A stretch of DNA of 54,505 nt, the filler included, from Bipalium vagum (lineage: Eukaryota), in assembly GCA_037834085.1 (NCBI GenBank). It is 3 parts of 3 records of this genome, joined end to end, with 100 filler letters (N's around TTAATTAATTAA, not from the genome) between each part and the next. Parts side by side here need not be neighbours in the genome. Positions count along the whole stretch, not along the records: positions 21,499 to 37,750 come from JBBMKC010120388.1; 2 more parts are not named here. One strand, 5' to 3'. Both the position numbers and the translations under genes were made by a program. Positions 676-40,340 of the stretch are shown here, in pieces. Each line of letters starts with the position of its first letter. Positions within the stretch are counted from its first letter, which is position 1. The notes under the pieces were generated by a model, which saw nothing but the letters and a program-made list of their open reading frames with translations, searched no databases and was not told the DNA's origin.

Positions 676-1315
676 TATATCACAAAAATCATCAGTAATT
701 AAGCTTATAGGAACACGATTTTTAGAATTAAAAAATTAATTAGTTTTAAGAGAAAAATCTTTTTACACATAAAACTACGATTAAGTGAAGGTGATCATTA
801 ATGCTGTGTGACATCAACCTCTGGAAGAACGGTCACAGTCAAATGAATCACAGGAACGATGAATAATAAAAACAATTTTTTCGCACCAGTGATCACCACC
901 GAAATGCGACCACTGTCTTCGGTGGGACAAATCTTTCTCATATGAGCTTCTGTTCTTCGTTAATCATTGGGAAGCGTGAAATAATTTGTGCTTTCTGGTG
1001 TCAAAAGCCAAAGCCAATGACCAGAACAGTGCGGATGGTTATCAGTAAATTTAGTGGTATAAAAAATTCGCGAAAAAATAATCATAAATATATTTTGACA
1101 TTTTTCCATCAAATCCACCCGTTCAAGTCGCTGTCATAATCGCAGAAATCGATAAGCGATAAACTGTCGAGTGGATATTTTCGTCAGATGGGAAATGTCA
1201 TTTGCCTTAGATTAAACGGAAAATCGGCTGTTGCCTGCATCTGGGAAAGTTGTGCTTTCGGGACATTTTATACATTAAGAAAATCGTTCAATTCCCAAGT
1301 ACAACTGCTACTTAC

Positions 1316-1654
1316 TATTGTAAATCCGCCATTTTGGTGGATTTCTACGACCCACAAATCTTCCAATTGTCCCAATCCTGTATTGATATTCCGTTCTCGA
1401 TCCATTGGTATTCGAATATTGAGCAAATATTCTTCGTAAAAACAGCTGCCCAACGAAAACAGCGGTAAAATTTCACAATCGTAAAAGTAGCCATCTATCG
1501 TTTGACCACTTTTCATTCTCTTTAAGGTGTCATCATCCAGTTTGCATCGAAGAGGTCTGACTTCTCTTGATCGTGCCATTTCAGTCCATCCAAAATCTCC
1601 TTTGTTTCTGTAGCCTAATCTCACATCTAAGGTTAACATAGTTTCGGTATCCAT
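1316..1654 (-). CDS. wls: Wntless/Evi (Wnt secretion factor), coding exon 2
   Basis: MDTETMLTLDVRLGYR...WTEMA...CEILPLFSLGS...YLLNIRIP...IHQNGGFTI matches the WLS lumenal domain (human WTEMAH...YLLNIRLP...IHQNGGFTKVW). AG acceptor at 1655-1656, GTAAGT donor at 1315; 339 nt, phase 0/0. Later exons were not found in 1-1315, so the gene continues outside the window. Confidence 0.95.
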
Positions 1655-1749
1655 CTAATAATAATAATAATATTATTAATATTAATATTAATAGTAACGT
1701 TGATTAAAAAATAATGTAAAAATAAAGAGATTGATTGAGACTGATAGTC

Positions 1750-2460
1750 ATTTAGGTTTTATTATAATAAGTTAGGCACAGGGAAGGTTACAATCCCCAC
1801 CACGAAGTCGGAAGAAGCAATTATAATATTTATATAATTTAAATTTGAAAAATTTTCCCATGACCAGTAAGATACCGCGAATAATAGGGAATGTACATTA
1901 AAGGCAGTTCGTGTAGGCGATAAATTTCATAAACAACTTTGTGTGAAGACCACATTCATGACATGATGTTTAATGTAAGGTCAACCAATGAATTTTTTCA
2001 CACTGTCTTGGATCTCGAGTGTTTTTAATTTAATCAGCTAATAATAACATCAACAATCGTAATAAACAAAATTGGTTCAGTGCTCGCGAAAATCTTCTGA
2101 AGATCACTTGTTAAAAGGAAGGTCATTGAAGGAAAAATTCAGAATTTATATAGATGCCAAATATAATTTAGGACCGTCATAAAGAAAAAATAGAGAATAT
2201 AAAAAAATATTTTGATAAAAGTCCTATTTTGTTAGGTGGCCCAAATAAAATAGTTCGGTTGACCAAAAGATGTTAAACCACAAGACTAAAGCTCATCGAG
2301 GAAGGTGTCCATTTAAGCAATGCTGGACCTTAGTATAAACCTTAGTATGAGCCAAAAATTATATCATTCCAATCCCAAACAGAATAGTTAGACAAGGCAG
2401 CACAATATACACTGGTGATGCAATAGTATATTGTGACTTAAACATAACATTTATACATGA
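1750..2460 (-). mobile_element. Possible degraded non-LTR retrotransposon (CR1/L2-like) 3' fragment
   Basis: Minus-strand reading LMYKCYVKSQYTIASPVY near 2410-2460 resembles the LYKxYVRPxLEYASPVW motif of CR1/L2 ORF2; the rest is heavily decayed. Confidence 0.3.
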
Positions 2461-2464
2461 GTCG

Positions 2465-2665
2465 GTTTGTCATAAATATCAGTTTATTGATTATGACCGC
2501 AATGTCCGCTCAGGACGTCGAAAGCTTCAACAACAAGATCAAAGAAAACCTGTGAACTATGCATGAAGCATATAATCACATCAGAGGTGATTTTCTTCAA
2601 GAATTCCTGTGGTTACATTACCATAATAGCTTGGAAGAAACTGTGAATTTGTTAATAAAACTGTA
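2465..2665 (+). mobile_element. Merlin (IS1595/ISXO2-like) transposase C-terminal remnant
   Basis: With one frameshift and one stop it reads VCHKYQFIDY...QDVESFNNKIKENL*TMH...RGDFLQEFLWLHY, matching the Merlin pattern H..F....G.HTQ.VES.....K.....L.EF.W. Confidence 0.65.
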
Positions 2666-3614
2666 TTTGTTGATTGTCAATTTCTCCTTATTTTTTAATT
2701 ATTGATATTCGTTTTTATTGTATGTCAAAAAACGTGATAGATAATTTTACATGTCACAAATAATACATGGGTCATAAAAAATTGTTACTTTTAGGTAAAA
2801 AATGACAAAGAAAAGTTTAGTTAAATGTAATTTTCAATTCTCCGTATTTTTATTATTTTATCAATTCTGTTGTAAAACAAGTGCGTCACACAAATGTTTT
2901 TAAGAAAAATTTTATTAATCTTATAAAAACTTCTAAAAGAAAAACGTGCTATAAAAATTACGTTTACCTCCATTCTCTAAATTTAATATCAGTTACCATG
3001 ACATTTAGGTTAATTGTGGAGATTGACATAACAGAACTAAACTAAAGGTGATTTCAAAGACTTATTTTTCATCATCAAAAGAAAAAAATAGCAAATAGTA
3101 AATACCAAAAAGTATTCTTGTGAATAAGGATAAAATATTATTTTTATGAATTTATTTTGTAAAAAATATATATTTAAAGTTAAAAATAATATATTAATTT
3201 AATAATTATTTACAAAGTCAATAAATCAATTTTAAAATCAAATCCTGAGGTGACGGTAATTTCTTCAATAAGTTAAAAATTTATAGATAATTTTATTCAA
3301 TATTTCATCGTATTTCCTTAATCTATACAATTAATTAAATAATATTGATTATAAAATTAATTGTATTTGAATTTTTATTAATTAAAATAATCTATTGTGA
3401 TTTGCTTCAATAAACCAATTTTTGGATTAAAAATTTGTATTTTAAATCTCCGTTCTTATATTAAATTCCAATTATTAATAATTTAATTATTAAGAATTAA
3501 GAATTAAACTTAATAATATAATAAATTATTTATTATTTTATTCCCAACAGGTTTTATTATTTCTGACATCTTCAATAAGTCATTTCTCATTTTTAATTAG
3601 TTCTCACCTATTTA

Positions 3615-3653
<39 letters not shown>
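3615..3653. repeat. (AAT)n microsatellite
   Basis: About 13 perfect AAT units read directly. Confidence 0.95.
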
Positions 3654-4197
3654 CACAATGGTTAATAATTCTCACTTCTGATTGAAACATGAATAACGAT
3701 GATTTGCTAAAAATTCTTATTAATTCTACATCGTTCATAAATAAATAAAAATAATATAAAAATTTTTAATCTGAAAAAAACATCCTTGGAAAGTTTTAGA
3801 AAGAAATTTTAATTAGAAAACTGTGAAAAATTAAAAAAGGCTAAGAAAAATAATTTATCTTCATTATTTATAATTCTTTCAATTTAACGCTGATAAATTT
3901 GATAGAGAAATGTGATTTAAAACAGCTGAACGGACCACTAAGCTTGTCAAGGATTATGGTGAAAGACGATGAAATATTATATCCGTTTATATATATATAT
4001 ATATTTATATTATCCAAAATATGAAATATTATTCTCAGAATATAATAAATATTTTTGTTATTATTACTATTGTAAATAAAAATCTCCTGAAATTCAGGTG
4101 GTTGTAAGAATCAAGGTAAAAAAGGTCTGACTAAACATAATTATAAAATAAATATATATAAGATCAAAACCAAAAAAGCCTATTATGGATCCATTAC

Positions 4198-4605
4198 CTC
4201 GATCTCCTTCATAAATTTGATATCCGTATTCAAAACGGCAATCAGCTGTTGAAACCATCGACTCATATTGAGACTGATTCCGTCTCGGGGCAGGGGAAAC
4301 TGGGCTGCAAATACGATTTGATCTGCAGTCAAATTTCGCCAAGGTATCGTCTTTTCCCCGGGTCCACTTTGCAATGTGTCCTTGCAAGTAATATCTCCAC
4401 CTTCCAGACGAGTGTAGAACCACTTATTGAAATTATTAGAAGGGTTTCTGTCAATACATTTCTCGGTGAGAACATTTGTATGTCCATGGGGAGTGGGAGC
4501 AATAAATCCTCCGACCAGAAAGCAGACCAACTGGCAACAAAAGACAATGCCGATAAAAATTCCCAATTTCTTCCAGCTTAACGTTTCAAGAACCACTCCA
4601 GACAT
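4198..4605 (-). CDS. wls: Wntless/Evi, coding exon 1
   Basis: ATG at 4605: MSGVVLETLSWKKL...FLVGGFIAP...KCID...MSRWFQQLIAVL..DIKF, matching the WLS N-terminus (human MAGAIIENMSTKKL...FLVGGLIAP...KCVD...MSPWFQFML). GTAATG donor at 4197; 408 nt; splices in frame to exon 2. Confidence 0.95.
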
Positions 4606-7119
4606 CGAGCGATAGAATTCGGTTTGATGATGATTCTGTGAATAATAGACTGTCAATAAAGCCGTGGGCTTTTTGATGATAAATGCAGCTCAAGTTCAGC
4701 AGAGAAAGCGCTTCCAGTCCGACGAATCCAATTGGCTTGGATGAAAAAAAATAACGAATGATCAACGCGGCATGTGTTTATCAATGATTCAGGTGGGTGT
4801 ACTAATGCATCATCAGCGTCACATCTCCATCATCGTCGGCGTCGTCATCATCATCGCCAGGCGGTGTGTGGATTTCCTGCATTACATCATTCCAAATGGA
4901 GATAATGAACGCAGTTTGGCCATTATTTGGCAACTTCATTACTTCACTGAGGAAAAAATTTCGTTTCCACTACTTTCACTTAATAAATCAATATCTCTTC
5001 GATAAGCCTCATCCAAATGCTTTTTAATCTTTACTTATACCTGTCTTCAAAGCAACACAATCCGCATTAAAGAATGATAAACCCTCTATTGATATCATCG
5101 AAATCATTCAATGAAAATAATATTCATTATTACCATTATATTATTATCATTATTGGTTGTTGTTGTTTTTAAAAATAATTTGATGACAAACCTCAGTAAT
5201 TGTCTTAAGATAACCAATACCACTTATTATTATGCAATGATCAGAGACCTAATCAAAATATTATATGAACATTTATTAAATGCAACTATGACACATAAAT
5301 ATTGCGTAATCATGATAAATGATAAAAAACTTACCGAGTAGTATAAAAAATGTTTATCAAATTTGTTTTCAAATTTTCTCAGTTAATTTAGTTGTTTCAA
5401 ATAAGTATGACCTTGAAGAGAATGTTAATAATTTATGTTGATTTAAGTTAAAAACAAACCATTTTGTTTATTTTAAATTTTAAGAATAAAATATATTTCT
5501 AATTTCATAATTTTAGAAGAAACTAACTCTTGTAAAAGATTTTTTTCCAGTTTAAGTTAATTCTTTTTATTAAACAATTATTACATAATAATTAGACTGA
5601 AATTCTATTCTTAAATATGAAACTTTAATGTTTTAAAGGACAATAAGTAACAGAATTTGATATTCTTAGAATTTTTTTATTAAAATAATATAACTAATTT
5701 AATTTCAGTTGGTTGGGTATATTTTTAGAAATTTCTTCTAGGAGAAACTTACTTTTTAATTAAAGATTTCGTTAAGGAAATAATACTAATAATAAATATT
5801 AAAAGTAATAATAATAATAATTTTATTGAAAATATAAATCAGAAATTTCATAAATTACGAAACTTAATTATTCCACAAAGCATTAATATGTCTCAGATCA
5901 TGTAGGTAGAAAATGATTTTCATAAATCTTTTTGTATCATTAAAGTGATATTAATTCTGATTAATAAGGGCTATGAAATGTTCTTAATTAATAGACTTCG
6001 CATTATTACTCTTCAGGTTTAAAAATAAATTTTATTGATACCTTAACGTCTTGCAAAAAATAGATATATCTTAAGTTAATTATTACGTAAATGGTGTAAT
6101 ATTCGCCAATGATGATTATATGACCCAAGGTAACCTTTATTACTAAATTAGTAATATTTTTAATTTTCTATTGATAATAATGAAATGGTTAATTTTGTCA
6201 ATAAAATATGATAATTTCACAACCGCATAAAAGTGTTTTGCGTTGAATAAAGAACCGAAAAGTGTTTAGAAAAATAAAAACATCTAATCAGATTAATCAA
6301 ATTCAAGTAAATTAAAAAGTTTAGGAGATTTTCAAATTTTAAAACACAAGATAATCTGAAAGATATCCATTAACATTCGCTTAACATAAGCCAAAAAATA
6401 TTATTTTTTCATAAAATAAAATTCGAACCTTATCAGCAAGGTAAAGGGAATCATCTTTTAAGTGAAAGTTCAAACCCAATACTTCATTTTAAAAGAATTG
6501 ATTCGGGCAAATAAATAATAATCAATATCAAATAATATTTCACATTTCTAAAGAAAATGTAATATTAATGATAATATATAATATAAAGAAAAATATAATA
6601 TGGTTAAGAAATATATATTTCTCATTAAAAATCACTCTTTTTTTTCTTTGATGATTATAAATAAAATATTTCTATTTTCAGCTGGTTACATAAATAGAAG
6701 TTTAACTGAAGGCTTTGGAAATGTTACTATCAAATGATGAAATGTTTAATAAACAGAAAATTATATTTAATTTACAAAATTAATAGACATTATAAAATTT
6801 ATTTTCATTTTAATTGGATTCGGATATCTTCACAACCTTGCTCTGTTTTTGATTTTTAATATTTTTTTCCTCTCCCTCTAGAAATCACCAGGAACAACAG
6901 CAAGGATAATATGGTATTCTAACAATAAAAATCAGCCACGTGAAATCATCAACAGATAAGAAACGTTCTGAGACAACTGGAATTCAAAAAGTTTAATATT
7001 CAAATGCCGGGAAGAAGATACTACTGCATTTCTGCATTAATTATTGTTTTTGATGAGACCACATGGTATCTCATAAAGAGATTAAAAGACTACCAGAGAA
7101 TTAGACTTTGATTTAAAAC

Positions 7120-7967: not shown

Positions 7968-9626
7968 TTAACAATAATTAATGAATTCTTCAAAATTATT
8001 GAAAGCGTCGTAGTTGTTGTCTTCAATGATCGTGGAATATGAACAGGACAGTTGGTTTTCTTCGTTGATATCTTGTTGCTGAATATCAGACTCTTCAACT
8101 TTTTCGGTTTTTTGCAAAAATGAGAAATTGTCCGCCACTCCCAAAGAATTATAAAGTGTCTCAAATTCATCAATATTATAATCCACCGAACCCTTTATAT
8201 CAACATCTTCCATGACACCCAATTTCACAGCCATTTGTTGTACCGTTTCTAGTTTTATCCTCTTTGGTCGACCCCGAGGTTTAATCACTGTTATAAAAAG
8301 TTTAATGTTATAGTGTGAAGGATGATAAAACTTTTATAAAGTCTTAATAGAGATAATAACAATGAAAATCTTACTAGTCTGGGTCTCTTCCTCCTTTTCG
8401 TTGGTTACGACTTTTTTCGGTCTACCTCTTTTTCGCTTGGCAATTTCTAAGCTGGTATCTGTAGTTAATAAAGATGTCTCACTATGTGGTATCCCATCAC
8501 ACAACCTAGGCCTTCCGCGTTTTTTAACAGGAGGAGCAGTTTGGGTTTCTTGTACTGGTTGCGGATCTAATTTTGTTTGATAACGTGAGTCTTTATCGAT
8601 AACATTTCCGAAATGTTTATAAAAATGTGTCTCTGACATAATTAGGGAGTTGGTTGAAAAATTGCAGCCCAAAATCGGACAGTTAATTTTGCCGAAATCA
8701 TCTCTGGACAAATGCTTGTTTTTCAAGTCTTTGTGTTCTGTATTGATGTGGTCGCTTCTCTCTTCCTCATTATTAAAGGTCTGTTCACAGTAGCGGCACG
8801 CTGGACGCCTAGAAACTCTTTCGTTGTGGACTTTGGTTAAATGTAAGTTTAGTTTTATTTTGCATGTAAAAGAATTAAAGTCCGGACAATATGGGCATAT
8901 GATCTCCTTTTTGTGCTTATTAAAGTGGTCCTTTATTGCTTCCAGATCATGAGGCAACTTGGCAAAACATAACTCACAAGATATTGGGAGGTGGTCGAAT
9001 CTCTGACATTCTGAAATGTGATTATAAATGTCTTCAGGAGACTCGAATTCAGCTTGACATGTGATGCAGAACATTTTAATCTAAAAGGTAGAAATCGTGA
9101 AAATCATATTTGCAAATGATAAACGTACCACTTTCGATGCATTATAAGTACCAAGCTGGTGTTCCCTGGTCTCAAGATGGGACAAATAGGTGTCATATGA
9201 GTTGAACTGTTTTTCACACGGTTCACAATTGAACTGGATTTCGTTTTTCTTATGTCTGTTGAAGTGGGTTTTCATGTTAGACTTTTGCGTAAATTGCTTT
9301 TTACAAATGACACAGGTAAAGGGTTTCAAATTCAAATGAGAACGCATATGATGTCGAAACAGACCCCCATTATCAGTTTGATAGAAGCAATTTTCATGTT
9401 CGCATTGGTGCTTCTTAGGGGGCATATTGACATCTCTGTTGACATTGTGGATTTGTCTAGCATGGAGAAAAAGCTTCCCCAGATCCTCGAAATACAAAGG
9501 GCAGCTACTGCAAACAACCACTGTCACCTGGTGTATTGTCTTCATATGTTTCTTAAAAGATTCCGGACGCAAAAAAGTCATGGGACATTCGGAGCAGCAG
9601 TAAATGATCTTTTCAGAATTTTCCAT
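7968..9626 (-). CDS. Multi-C2H2 zinc-finger protein with three AT-hooks, 507 aa; exons 9129-9626, 8375-9080, 7968-8287
   Basis: Three ORF-track entries join in frame through GT-AG introns 9081-9128 (48 nt) and 8288-8374 (87 nt); total 1524 nt. About 9-10 CxxC...H...H fingers, including canonical KPFTCVICKKQFTQKSNMKTHFNRH; AT-hooks KKRGRPR, KRGRPKK, KPRGRPKR; acidic C-tail. Confidence 0.9.
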
Positions 9627-10568
9627 CTTGATAAATATTAATGATTACTTAATTTATACAAAAATAAAATCCAGACAAACTACACAATTTTATTAGAATA
9701 AATTAATAATACAATTTTTTTGTTTAAATCAATATTATTTAAACTATTTTTGTTGTTTTAAAAAGTTAAAAATTTTTTATATTTTTCACTTTACTTTACT
9801 TATAAAAACTTAACTTTTTATTTTTAAACTTAATTTTTAAGCTTTCTGTCATGATAAAAATAATAAAATAAAATTTTTACATTTAACTTTGGTTGTTTTA
9901 ATGTATTCACAATACACAAGTCTTATTTTTCACATTGACCTGGTATTATATACAATTTATTTTTGAAATAATTTCTTTTTTTAATGATAATCTTTTTAAA
10001 AAAAATCTTCTCAATATCATTTGGTGAAAAAAGGTAATTATAATTTTTAATAATAATAATAATAATAAATATTTGGGATTTGGATAATAATTTAACAAAA
10101 CTTTTCTAAAATATTAATAAATTTTTCTTTAAAAAATAACCAGTATTTAAGTTAGAAAATTATAACAAATAAACCTAACGATATTTTAGTTGAAATTATT
10201 TTATGTATAAAAATAAATTAATTAACATTTTTCCATTTATTAAAACAAAATATGAGTATCTTCATAAATATATTAAATTTCCACATTTTGCACTTAATGT
10301 ATTCTATCCCGAAATTAATAATCTTTTTATTGATAGTTAAGTATCATTTTTTCCTAAATAATGTCTTGTCCTTGATTTCCAAATATAATCATAAATTTTA
10401 TTATTATTTTTAATATCTCAAGAAACGGATTTATTTATAATAAAATTTATGACTTTTCTAATAATTATGAAAAATAATAAAATTTTATTATTATTGTGCT
10501 AATGAATTTTACAGATCACAAAAATGAAAGAACTGTCCGTTAAATGCATATTTCGGTTTTATTAAATA

Positions 10569-18939: not shown

Positions 18940-19880
18940 CATTCACTGGGTCTTGAAATATTTAAATTATTTACCCAATGGAAATCAAGCTTTTGGCATT
19001 ATCAAGAAAGGAGTAATTTAGTATCTGAATTAGAATTCAACCCAGTTCCCTGCTCAGTCATCAGTCCAGACTAACACAAGGATAACATCAGGTTTGTTAA
19101 GTAACTTTTGCTTCTGATGAGATTCAACCACATAGTATCCCATATAGATAATCAATTTCATATTGGTATTATCACCCAGTTCACTGGTTAGTCATCAGGA
19201 GATTATAGTCAACCATGTTCCCATTTCTTCCTAGTGATAAGATGGTGGAGAAAATCTATGGTTACCTCCAACCTCTTGCAATATTTGAATTCATGGATGG
19301 ATAGATACAAGCGATCATTAGGAAAAATATCTTAAAGAAAATTATGATAAAATCTTGATAGGAGAAATATCGCATTTTTGAATTGTCTTTCCATATTCTC
19401 TGGAATAAGACTATAAGGTACCAATCTGCAAGTTCCTAGAATCCTTCCTAGATATTTGACTCGACCGAATCATTACCTGCTGTATCATTCCAAGTTGCAT
19501 AGCGAGTTTTGTTTGCGTTCTACATGGGCTTTTATCCAACAATTTTTCATGGCCTTCATGTTTTTGATTGATTATGGCATTTGATAGATTCAAATTTCTG
19601 CTTTTGAATCGGGTAAACCATTTTTGTTGTATAGCTTTTTCAACTAAAGTAGAAATAACCTTAGCTCTAGCCTCATATGCAACTTTCTTCAATTTAAAGG
19701 TAAATAATAAACAATGTCTTATAAGTATTTTTGGGATGTTATTTGAATTTTCATAAATTTGTTTAAAATATTAAAACAAGAATTATCGATTACCTTTAAT
19801 TTACAGCTTACTCATTAAGGAAAACCTTTCGGTTAGATTTTCAGCCATTTACTAAATAGGCACTTTAAAAGTAGACCTAA
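18940..19880 (-). mobile_element. Decayed mariner remnant (N-terminal HTH region)
   Basis: RHCLLFTFKLKKVAYEARAKV...QKWFTRFKSRNLNL...SPCRTQTKLAMQLG; boundaries approximate. Confidence 0.7.
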
Positions 19881-20125: not shown

Positions 20126-20530
20126 TTAAAAAGGATATTCACTAGAGGTATTGTTTCTTTTGTTGAAAATATGGCAACCGTAGTGAGAGTAGCAGAAGTT
20201 GCTCTTTCTTGACTGATAAGATTGCAAGAAGGTATTTTGATTGAGAGGAAGATGGTTTTGTGTCCGAAAAGGTGTAGTTATTGGTAAAGGCTGTCTGAAT
20301 ATCGATAATATAATACACTGAAGGCCATGCTTAAGTTTCTCACTCATAAAATAGTAAACAATTGGGTTGCAAAATGAATTAATGAAACTTATCATATGTA
20401 TTATGATAAATATGAAAAAAAAATTTTGTTTATTCAGAAAATCGGTGATGAGGGCTACCAACTGCATCGTATAAAATGGCGTCCAAGATATAACATGTAA
20501 GCAGGCAATTATTATAATCATTTTGGCTAC
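20126..20530 (-). CDS. Terminal exon of a rhodopsin-family (class A) peptide-type GPCR: TM6, TM7, helix 8, C-tail
   Basis: AG acceptor at 20531-32, then VAKMIIIIACLHVISWTPFYTMQLV (WxP of TM6) and HMISFINSFCNPIVYYFMSEKLKHGL (NPxxY); stop at 20126. Upstream exons were not recognised. Confidence 0.9.
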   Translation of the reverse strand, partial: VAKMIIIIACLHVISWTPFYTMQLVALITDFLNKQNFFFIFIIIHMISFINSFCNPIVYYFMSEKLKHGLQCIILSIFRQPLPITTPFRTQNHLPLNQNTFLQSYQSRKSNFCYSHYGCHIFNKRNNTSSEYPF

Positions 20531-21398: not shown

Positions 21399-21498
21399 NN
21401 NNNNNNNNNNNNNNNNNNNNNNNNNNNNNNNNNNNNNNNNNNTTAATTAATTAANNNNNNNNNNNNNNNNNNNNNNNNNNNNNNNNNNNNNNNNNNNN
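21399..21498. other. Artificial 100-nt contig join: 44 N + TTAATTAATTAA + 44 N
   Basis: Read directly; the linker has stop codons in all six frames and the same structure recurs at 37751-37850. Confidence 0.95.
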
Positions 21499-36272: not shown

Positions 36273-37564
36273 TAATATATCTCTCTCCTGGAATTAGCTT
36301 CATAACTTCCAATTTTCATTATAAATAAATTCTCTTTATTCGATATCAACTTATTTTTAAAAATTTAATATTTGGAATCTGGTTAATTCGTGTGTATCCA
36401 AAACTTTCCAACTGGTCTCATTGATAAGGTGCATCAATGTTATATTTTACAGCTGGTTGTATTTTTAAAGTAGGTTTTTAAAATAGCCATACCGGTAGTA
36501 CACAGAACGAGTAATCTGGATACTAGATCCCATTCCATTTTAAAGATAAAGTAATTCTTCTACATTTAAATTGAGTGGTTCAGGAGTATCACCTTACACT
36601 TGAATTTCACATTTACTTCCCGTATCAGAATGCAAAATTTTTGCAATCATTTAATATGTTAATATCAACACCATTTTAAACAAATTCTTAACTGACTCTA
36701 GGACACTACTGGATGAAGCTCGTTTTAGCCAACACAAAAAATCACTAAAATATATTATACCTATACCTGGTTACAGTAGTAACACAACAATCGGATAAAA
36801 TTCAAAATAACTAACATTCTGCTACAGTTAGGAACCTAAAAATTTACTATTTTGCTAACATAATAACTGAAGTCGATAAACAAAATTTAAAAATTAGGGG
36901 AAAATAATATATATTAAGAGATAATCAAAAAAATATTAACGTAATTTCTTCATAATTGAAATGTTTTTTAAACAAGCAGAGCTTTTTAATAGAAAAGTGT
37001 TGAAAGAAGAATAACCGATTTATTTCCGAATTTTATAAAATCCAAATACTGCAACCGATATTTTGATCTAATCCAGATTAGAAAAGATCGGAAATTGTGG
37101 ATCCACGAAAGTCTGGAAGAAGAATATTTGAAAACAGCAGAGAGCAGAGTTGAGCGATGGTTTGGCAGACTAAATAAGACATCAGGTTTTGAAGAGATGC
37201 TGAAGAATAGTCAAGGAAAAGAAGTTTTATGTTTTGGTGAACATGGGTTGATTTTATTCTATCTTTCTCTTAATTTGTGAAGGCAATATACCAATCACAA
37301 TGAATAAAGACAAATACTTTTTGAAACTTTTTTTATAATAAAAATTTTTTTAAAAGGTATTTTAAAAATAAATTCACACACTCTTAAACTCAAAAGATCA
37401 AATTGACTATTAATTAATTTAAGAAGAGTTCAATAAACAAAAAGAAATGTGCAGATGCCTTGAAGAAAAAATACCAAATCTGATATCTAGTTTATCAGAC
37501 CGTAAGTGCCGGAAATGAAGATAAAAAGAAGAAATTAGATAATTTTTATAAAGACAGAGACGGG

Positions 37565-37568
<4 letters not shown>

Positions 37569-37605
<37 letters not shown>
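37569..37605. repeat. (TA)n microsatellite
   Basis: Read directly; abuts the hammerhead-bearing repeat. Confidence 0.95.
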
Positions 37606-37609
<4 letters not shown>

Positions 37610-37702
37610 TAGTCTTGTGAACAATAATCTTTTATTTTTTAAATAAACGCCATTTAACGAATTTTTACGAAAGCACAATATTTTATTCAATAAACTAGTA
37701 TC

Positions 37703-37746
37703 TTGAAACATGTTTCGATCTTTTCATTCAGATCTTCTTCAGTCAA
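37703..37746 (-). ncRNA. Minimal type I hammerhead ribozyme (Penelope-like element terminal-repeat type)
   Basis: Minus strand: TTGA-CTGAAGA-A-GATCT-GAATGAAA-AGATC-GAAA-CATG-T-T-TCAA. This gives stem I TTGA/TCAA, core CUGANGA, a 5-bp stem II, GAAA, palindromic stem III (ACATGT) and a GUU cleavage triplet. Confidence 0.75.
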
Positions 37747-37750
37747 TTTT

Positions 37751-37850
37751 NNNNNNNNNNNNNNNNNNNNNNNNNNNNNNNNNNNNNNNNNNNNTTAATT
37801 AATTAANNNNNNNNNNNNNNNNNNNNNNNNNNNNNNNNNNNNNNNNNNNN
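37751..37850. other. Artificial 100-nt contig join: 44 N + TTAATTAATTAA + 44 N
   Basis: Read directly; same structure as 21399-21498. Confidence 0.95.
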
Positions 37851-39179
37851 ATTTCGATTATAATCTGTTCGAAAACGACGAATCCGTTAAACATTTCCAT
37901 TCATAATTATTGAATGATTGGCGTTTATTCAGTTTGAATGTAAATGAATTTAAGTGTTTAATATTAATGTATATTGATAGACAAGCAATGGGGGACAGTA
38001 TTTATAAATGAATTAAAATATTAATTAAAAATATATTCCACTAAGGAATAAATAAATAAAATAAATAAATAATAAATAATAATACTAATGATGATATTCG
38101 CTGACAAAGCGAAACCCGATTCGCGAGCTGTCAGCAATCTTCGACGAAACAACTGTGACAATTGTTTGATAATAAAAAACGATTATCTATTTTTGATAAT
38201 AATTTTAACTTAATTATTATGTTAATAATAAATTTTAAATGGGATTAGGTTTCTTTAAAGGAAATAAAACCTTGTTTAAGTTACAATATCAAGTACGCAT
38301 ATATAAATCGTGGTTATAAATTGAATATTTAATTTGTCAATATTGTAACCGTAATATTATCTTGTATTTTTTAGATAAAATTACCTTTGTCCCTCTTATC
38401 GTTTGTATGATTGAAATTGTATACTCTGTGACATAAGAGAAGTAGGCTCCTAACATTTAATTTAAATTTTATCAATCGCTTTGCCAGGCAATAAAAACAA
38501 TAATATTCATGTGAGGTTTATCCACTCTATTCACAGTATTAATGTTGGGTTCAGATTTTAATTGATTATACAATTCATCGATTGAATAATTCTGGAAATT
38601 CGATACCTTCAACTCACGAGTGTGAAAATTTGCACGCTCTTTGAATTTTCAGTTTTATTTATTTTTATTTATTTAGATTACAAATAAAATTATACTTTAT
38701 AGTGATTATTGTTTCAGAGTTTTGCTTAATGAATAATTTGATCTAGAAATTCATTCAGAACGTTTCTAATTTTTCCATTCGAATTGATTTTCTTCAATTA
38801 TTTTATTAAATTTATTGTTTAGAGTTTTTTTATTATTATTATTATTATTTAATTTTTTTGATGTATTATTATATAATTAGAAATATTTTACAATTAAAAT
38901 AAAACGGGTTAAAGTTTATTATTTTTGATGATGTACGTGTCACAATAACTATAATTACCACTGTTTATGTTTTTTATATGTAACATGAAAGAGGAATATT
39001 TAAACAAATTATGTTTGCTGATGATTGGATCTAAGTATGTCAGTCCGGGTCTTTTTTGAAGTCACCATGTACGTGTCTTGAATGTAAGCACGGAAAGAGA
39101 AATGGAAAATATAAATAAATATTTTTATAATTATAATTTATTTTCGATAATTGTCATTATTAAATGATTTTAAGAATCT

Positions 39180-40340
39180 TAGGGTTGTACATTTCAGATT
39201 AGTGTTAATAATTATATGTTCAACGAATCAATTGGCCTGTGAGGAAAGCTTAACATCCTGGAATCTTTAAAAAGGGTTATGAGAAAGTTCATTAAAAGCT
39301 GCGCGAAATGTATTAAGTGTGTAGATGTGAAGAAGGAAAAAATGATTTATTAGTGGTAGGCCTAATAGATCGATATTTAAGAGAAGACGAGGAATGCCAA
39401 GAGGAATCGCTAGGCTGTGAAGATCGCCTAAGGCATTTCTCAAAAAGAAAAGTTCAATACAAAAATAGACATACATATGAAAATGTCTATTTTTACAAGA
39501 AGTCTGAAGGATAATTGGAAAGAAACTCAACATATAAGCTGGACAAGGAATAGGTCACAAAGAAGATACTTGTTAAAAAGTTGCCGAGATTTCAGAATCC
39601 AAATAAAAGTAAAGGAAAACAAATTGAGCAATTGAGTGAGAATTTTTGAAATGATAAAACCAAATCATGAGATGAAGAACGACCTGAACAAGGAGCACAA
39701 CGTAAGTGGTGTTCCGAGCTACAGGAAGTCTGAATAGGCAGAAATCAAAGCACGACCATAGAATGTCATAGAATTCAAACCTTTAAACTTTAGAAAGGCA
39801 GAAATTAAGTGAAACGATTGCAAAGACAAATGTGATGAATCAAAATATTTTAGAAAATTAAATATATATTTCAATAATGTGGAACTTGTTTGTTACGAGC
39901 ATTTATCAAATTACGCGAGTAACAGTAAAATGATTCATGTAGAGTTAGAAATCGACAAATGCACCAAAATCTTACAATCAACCTTATTGGAAGACATGAG
40001 ACCTGATTTCGTTGGAGGAATTGATGTAGTTATCAATTAAAGGATAAAATGGACCCCTAATGAAACAACTGAAGAATCTACAACATAGACACAAACTTTG
40101 TTCGGATAATTAATAATACTGAAAGAACACAGAGAGCAAGACTTTGTAAGCTTAAAGATTATTTTATTGGGGGAATGTGAAGATATTAATTAAAAAGATA
40201 ATAATAAAATTTTAGGATATAACAAAATTATTGTCATAAATATATAAAATTTATAAAGTGTAAATGTCGTTTTTTAAATAAGTATAAAAAGGGTTTAAAA
40301 TAAATAAATAAATTTTTTATTAACTCTCAAGAGTGTTGTG
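39180..40340 (+). mobile_element. Probable decayed LTR retrotransposon (gag/protease-like remnants, PPT and short 3' LTR)
   Basis: Purine-rich broken ORFs; IHVELEID...LLEDMRPDFVGGIDV is weakly retropepsin-like; GGGGGAA is followed immediately by TGTGAAG at about 40176, then TATAAAA and AATAAA signals. Confidence 0.4.

Follow-up and report, generated by a model that had tools for sequence, protein, structure and literature searches.

A minimal hammerhead ribozyme in a high-copy repeat of Bipalium vagum, probably the end of a Penelope-like element beside a (TA)n microsatellite

Minimal hammerhead ribozymes (min-HHRs) occur at the ends of Penelope elements in thousands of copies per genome, and PMC4209133 names as their recurrent traits in Penelope-like elements (PLEs) an extra nucleotide, a G10.1-C11.1 pair and a palindrome at 15.2-16.2 and loop 3. 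The same text describes a subtype with a small palindromic helix III in Drosophila spp., rotifers, shrimps and mosquitoes, pairs of min-HHRs on opposite strands 100-700 bp apart, and an example from S. mansoni with no cleavage as a monomer and low cleavage as a dimer. For PAc, a Poseidon element of Anolis carolinensis, PMC11167929 reports an endonuclease that cuts AT-rich DNA, reverse transcription that starts 111-118 nt into the ORF, and ribozyme cleavage that depends on protein and that insertion in vitro can do without. A pLTR that holds the first 12 codons, or 22 with the tail, is described in PMC3846280. Naiads are biased toward (TA)n and have no canonical hammerheads, Neptune elements are biased toward microsatellites, and complex PLE insertions break short-read assemblies, according to PMC8557442. 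The hammerhead reported here is ordinary in this company, minimal PLE hammerheads at element ends having already been described; its architecture may already figure in the supplementary alignments of PMC4209133 (Cervera & de la Pena 2014), and its meaning goes little past annotation.

The window is the whole stretch of Bipalium vagum DNA that was analyzed, 54,505 nucleotides long with filler included and with a GC content of ~26%. Its minus strand holds a Wntless exon (Pfam WLS_GOLD, 1268-4689), a Mos1-type (mariner-type) HTH remnant (19411-19770) and a rhodopsin-family GPCR fragment (20126-20530), contents that mark the genome as an animal's. ORFs at 8334-9644 resemble zinc-finger proteins by eye. 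The plus strand at 39200-40200 looks like decayed coding sequence, is skewed toward purines and has a CxxC motif; Pfam gave no match to three fragments of it. A sequence-only reading of the window had claimed that all hammerhead elements stand in order within 44 nt of the minus strand, and the sequence and a descriptor scan agree on this:

37703..37746, minus strand: minimal type I hammerhead, 44 nt, from sequence, descriptor scan with shuffles and stem I covariation with relatives
37746-37743 and 37706-37703, minus strand: stem I, TTGA/TCAA, 4 bp, from sequence
37742-37736, minus strand: core CTGAAGA (CUGAAGA), from sequence
37735, minus strand: extra A between A9 and G10.1, from sequence; a hallmark of PLE min-HHRs in PMC4209133
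37734-37730 and 37721-37717, minus strand: stem II, GATCT/AGATC, 5 bp with an 8-nt loop, from sequence
37716-37713, minus strand: core GAAA, from sequence
37709-37707, minus strand: cleavage triplet GUU, with the cut predicted to follow 37707, from sequence

The motif is type I by its CUGANGA and GAAA core, its NUH site and its stems I-III in type I order. Stem II is closed by G10.1-C11.1 (G37734-C37717), C-AT-G (CAUG) makes up the palindromic 15.2-16.2 and loop 3, and four of the four min-HHR features named in PMC4209133 are found in the motif. The earlier reading had suspected that the extra core A and the GUU site might lower activity. Neither suspicion was borne out: that text lists the extra nucleotide among the traits conserved in PLE min-HHRs, and at H17, which our search pattern left free, the 101 distinct relatives among the matches listed have C in 49 cases, U (thus GUU) in 43, A in nine and G in none. 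A limited literature search found no papers on GUU rates. Hammerhead cleavage sites follow the NUH rule, and GUU sites usually cleave slower than GUC.

The hammerhead at 37746-37703 is the sole descriptor match on both strands of the window, and a scan permitting one core mismatch found no second copy in it. Across 400 block-wise dinucleotide shuffles, matches per window numbered 0.0275 with the loose descriptor, 0.0025 with Watson-Crick pairing and a stem II of ≥5 and 0.005 with a minimal helix III; a sequence-only pattern gave 1 match where 0.05 was expected. A check against hammerhead covariance models, which had been proposed earlier, was negative, the Rfam models giving no match to the motif at the gathering score or at E≤10, and in the minimum free energy fold of the monomer stem II alone forms (z 0.12). 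A chance match in AT-rich DNA would sit well with the lack of an Rfam match and of a folding z-score. Against it stand an expectation of just 0.0025-0.03 per window, conservation of the X1 repeat family across the motif and covariation of stem I (both described below), which effectively refute this explanation and leave it a negligible probability; the hammerhead motif is real.

Two further features overlap helix III:

37705..37716, no strand assigned: perfect 12-nt palindrome GAAACATGTTTC, predicted to form a competing inactive duplex, from two-strand folding
37708..37713, minus strand: self-complementary ACAUGU, predicted to pair between molecules as the 6-bp helix III of a double hammerhead, from sequence, a dimer model and the mechanism in PMC4209133

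The proposal that a palindromic stem III allows dimeric cleavage stands for the central ACAUGU, which would be helix III, but not for the outer pairs of the 12-nt palindrome, which would tie up stem I as well as G12-A14 and U17. The palindrome reaches 12 nt because H17 is U and stem I begins with UC. Two-strand folding favors the 12-bp duplex over the active double hammerhead by 12.4 kcal/mol, a gap to which the weak 4-bp stem I contributes and which is given in nearest-neighbor energies that leave out Mg2+ and tertiary contacts. The 129 relative matches among those listed have a median gap of 5.2 and a 90th percentile of 11.4 kcal/mol, and the 12-nt palindrome occurs in none of them. The palindrome is a distinctive trait of the window hammerhead, one predicted from the folding model to compete with the active dimer.

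The earlier reading had proposed a check of copy number, and the outcome is clear: 37610-37750 (141 bases) belongs to a high-copy repeat, on which the X1 read assembly places 434 contigs, 111 of them at 99% identity or above, 108 at 95-99%, 120 at 90-95% and 95 below 90%. Summed X1 depth, which does not equal copy number, is 15,208 at 37610-37614 and reaches a maximum of 103,223 over the ribozyme, against a single contig of depth 9.94 with no differences on the flank at 38100-38600. X1 contains 0.88 of the sampled words of 36900-37750 and is possibly the source of the window itself; X2 has no contigs on 37610-37750, which is uninformative either way, and X6-X8 have small shares. Allowing for overlapping contigs, we infer hundreds to thousands of element copies. 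Five X1 variant sites are listed, of which U17>A (51 contigs, ~5% of depth) is the only one within the motif and retains NUH, the cleavage base still being non-G; G at 37673 is almost private to the window locus. X1 subfamilies depart from the window sequence at 37694-37703 and 37747-37749 (six X1 loose-end rows among the 10 of 63 listed), that is, at the borders of the ribozyme, which is thus a shared block. X3 and X4, runs labeled as other organisms, each have one contig that matches 140 of the 141 letters of 37610-37750, with depths of 34.7 and 3.7, respectively; unlike the element, the single-locus flank has no cover in these runs, and a contig of low depth that occurs in both X4 and X5 is related to an X1 contig. 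The near-identical copies in X3 and X4 may reflect carry-over, a shared co-sampled organism or transfer.

Relatives were sought in metagenome contigs with a pattern derived from the window's own hammerhead, in which the core, outer stem II and helix III were fixed and stem I was left free. At least 135 matches were found in at least 117 stretches and at least 116 loci, all from organisms other than the window's and all matching the window over the ribozyme alone. This set (L001-L116) contains many minimal hammerheads with a CTCC/GGAG stem I, many of them head-to-head. Stem I has ≥4 bp in 74 of the 101 distinct relatives among the matches listed; in a loose-pattern control of 120 stretches from viral_contigs, a stem I of 4 bp was present in eight and the two stems together in none. 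The specific hammerhead pattern had no matches in viral_contigs, and a window-like one had none in genome_contigs. When the window was aligned with 35 relatives picked by hand from 77 distinct ones, all five stem I pairs had two-sided changes and the covariation score, which kinship among the aligned relatives inflates, was reached by 0 of 500 shuffles; the change from the relatives' CTCC/GGAG to TTGA/TCAA in the window is compensatory at three of four pairs. The covariation looked for by the earlier reading is thus present in stem I across relatives from other genomes, where it was measured, rather than among the copies of the window genome. Two hammerhead copies occur in 19 of the 116 loci among the matches listed (two of the 19 are one contig), all head-to-head with no direct pairs. 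Descriptor and one-mismatch scans found no inverted hammerhead partner in the window outside the gap.

Two nearby stretches of the plus strand were inspected in this connection. The first, at 38085-38200, is an island of nested hairpins, GC-rich within AT-rich surroundings, where one segment is at the center of two alternative pairings. By the one-mismatch scan it is not a second hammerhead, and its X1 depth is that of a single locus from 38100 on. The second, at ~37898-37929, has a weak inverted similarity to the element tail (top 0.3-0.9% of 2,674 windows) and was not accepted as a decayed inverted partner, since five places score higher and it was chosen post hoc.

These data bear on another possible identity of the repeat, a non-LTR retrozyme or a hammerhead satellite, whose tandem units of 150-450 bp would be cut to monomers and circularized, the window copy being the end of an array or a solo unit. 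The high copy number, the low GC content and the break of the contig at the motif fit such a unit, and an origin of retrozymes from pLTRs is argued in bioRxiv 2026.07.22.740005. However, no backward (tandem) or strand-change joints are listed among the 434 X1 contigs, and the 19 paired relative loci among the matches listed are all inverted. The 314-letter X3 contig matches the stretch just once, which disfavors units under ~270 bp, head-to-tail units above ~270 bp being still compatible. Moreover, according to PMC7229834 the retrozyme hammerheads of A. millepora are canonical, and it is PLE and Terminon hammerheads that the minimal ones resemble. We regard a retrozyme as improbable. The earlier reading had offered the end of a PLE or a retrozyme, and its first half is the one that stood, with a PLE-class minimal hammerhead in a multi-copy repeat; its retrozyme and circular-RNA half gained no support.

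The boundaries of the element in the window are as follows:

37610..37711, minus strand: 3′ part of the repeat, likely pLTR end and tail, with a 34-codon open frame, possibly the start of a PLE ORF, from X1 depth, shuffling and the length shared by relatives
37569..37609, no strand assigned: (TA)20 microsatellite at the element 3′ end, likely the AT-rich insertion target, from sequence, with the target role suggested by PMC8557442 and PMC11167929
37751..37850, no strand assigned: scaffold spacer of N44, 12 letters and N44, 100 bp, from sequence

The PLE end was likely inserted at the (TA)n microsatellite, with the 3′ junction in (TA)n, the 5′ junction in the gap and no target-site duplication identified. 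The window element reaches (TA)n 97 nt after the predicted cut, compared with a median of 105 nt shared past the cut site by the relatives (118 of 121 with a partner, among the matches listed) and 85-92 nt implied for PAc. The contig ends just past the motif, as first noted, at 37750, with the spacer next to it; the spacer likely conceals the pLTR upstream and may conceal an inverted partner too. The 314-letter X3 contig extends 163 letters beyond 37750, and 37851-37925 has no contig cover in the four runs examined. The gaps at 21399-21498 and 37751-37850 are alike (N44-12-N44), a fixed scaffolding spacer, and the 12 letters within them are probably not genomic. Exon-like stretches with AG/GT ends lie on the plus strand at 37077-37248 and 37456-37501; were they genuine exons, the element would be intronic and in antisense orientation. 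For protein identity at 36993-37277, Pfam gave no match and the PDB none that was convincing, with three weak matches of which the two examined were repeat proteins.

From an ATG within helix III, the frame stays open for 33 more codons, as far as (TA)n (P 0.027 in shuffles). Judged by eye, the candidate frame is unbroken in one end from X3 and in three related subfamily ends from X1, of 43, 23 and 11 contigs, and it meets a stop in a fourth X1 end (agreement 0.62) and in the X4 end. Relative to the window, the largest subfamily end has two Leu>Ile replacements, an Arg>Lys, a 3-nt indel and a single silent substitution, and four of the five listed X1 variants are non-silent in this frame. The 40-aa frame 37604-37723 had no homolog among longer proteins at E≤10, and the relatives among the matches listed have no open frame from the same ATG, usually meeting a stop within five codons. 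A coding reading of the 34 codons is no more than suggestive. Of the AATAAA signals and (TA)n tract claimed to follow the motif, both sequences are present, AATAAA at 37687 and 37636 on the minus strand, in frame as Asn-Lys. With 9 such hexamers per kb of the window, the two copies are uninformative and were rejected as polyA signals.

A check for linkage to PLE proteins, also proposed earlier, found no RT or GIY-YIG domain in the window (tblastn; 13 ORFs scanned in Pfam); the one link comes from another organism. There, the ORF L027:3283-3894 has a GIY-YIG match (E 1.8e-4; 22.2 bits, slightly below the Pfam cut-off of 22.6), the one ORF scanned of 57 ORFs of ≥130 aa and picked by eye. Its end is followed after 230 bp by a hammerhead on the same strand, and an inverted hammerhead copy lies upstream of the ORF. 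This is one of 116 loci among the matches listed; tblastn with the ORF found no match in the other listed loci or in the window, and GIY-YIG had no match among the 120 loose-pattern viral_contigs stretches. Another hammerhead retroelement, either endonuclease-less (Terminon/Athena-like) or a non-autonomous derivative mobilized in trans, is consistent with the finding of no ORF for the family in the window genome, and minimal hammerheads also occur in Terminons (PMC7229834). We consider it highly improbable: the locus is internal and gene-bearing, beside (TA)n and with telomeric repeats absent, and the closest architectural relative among the matches listed sits behind the GIY-YIG ORF.

The high-copy repeat is very probably the truncated 3′ end (pseudo-LTR and tail) of an endonuclease-bearing Penelope-like retrotransposon. 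The depth of the X1 family, the subfamily borders, stem I covariation, the head-to-head pairs, the GIY-YIG ORF of L027 and the 97-nt tail all argue for this assignment, and the architecture is common to the window and its relatives; the folding models, which disfavor the active dimer by 12.4 kcal/mol, count against it. A Neptune-type element is the likelier clade because Naiads have no canonical hammerheads.

From PLE biology, we infer that the element's GIY-YIG/RT protein nicked the AT-rich (TA)n DNA and that reverse transcription began ~100 nt past the point where the ribozyme cuts, a start that would have fixed the element 3′ end at ~37610. The product would be a truncated pLTR-plus-tail copy with its upstream part in the gap. 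In transcripts of tandem elements, two ribozyme copies could pair via ACAUGU into a double hammerhead that would cut after GUU, probably slowly or weakly and with help from protein. The lone window copy would probably not cleave as a monomer and is probably an inert passenger. We also speculated that the 12-nt palindrome, if common to most copies, could lock the core inactive until an element protein refolds it, whereupon cleavage 2 nt past the helix III start codon would decapitate the mRNA and turn message into template; the near-identical copies in runs labeled as other organisms could reflect recent interspecies spread. We give this reading a small chance of being right. The predicted self-blocking palindrome and the natural U17/A17 variants would make a convenient pair for asking if cleavage is selected.

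Compared with the min-HHRs in pLTRs of metazoan EN+ PLEs in PMC4209133, the window hammerhead agrees in its stem I of 4 bp, the extra nucleotide that follows A9 and the G10.1-C11.1 pair; it also has the palindromic 15.2-16.2 and loop 3 and the many dispersed, variable copies in subfamilies. Its 5-bp stem II differs from the 7-8 bp of the S. mansoni min-HHR in that text, and, unlike the subtype described there, its palindrome extends to 12 nt across core and stem I; no linked ORF was found for it in the window. Non-LTR retrozymes (PMC7229834; bioRxiv 2026.07.22.740005) have in common with it a type I hammerhead, low GC content and high copy number, whereas no tandem organization is seen in the X1 contigs and the window ribozyme is minimal, not canonical. 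The (TA)n at the insertion end of the element is as in the Naiad and Neptune PLEs of PMC8557442. The likeness to PAc (PMC11167929) extends to an end ~90-100 nt past the cut, an AT-rich target and a start codon (a candidate in the window) overlapping the ribozyme. The ORF of PAc begins within stem II and 26 nt ahead of the cut, whereas in the window the predicted cut follows by 2 nt a candidate ATG that belongs to helix III, and cleavage, shown for PAc with protein, is predicted from sequence for the window hammerhead.
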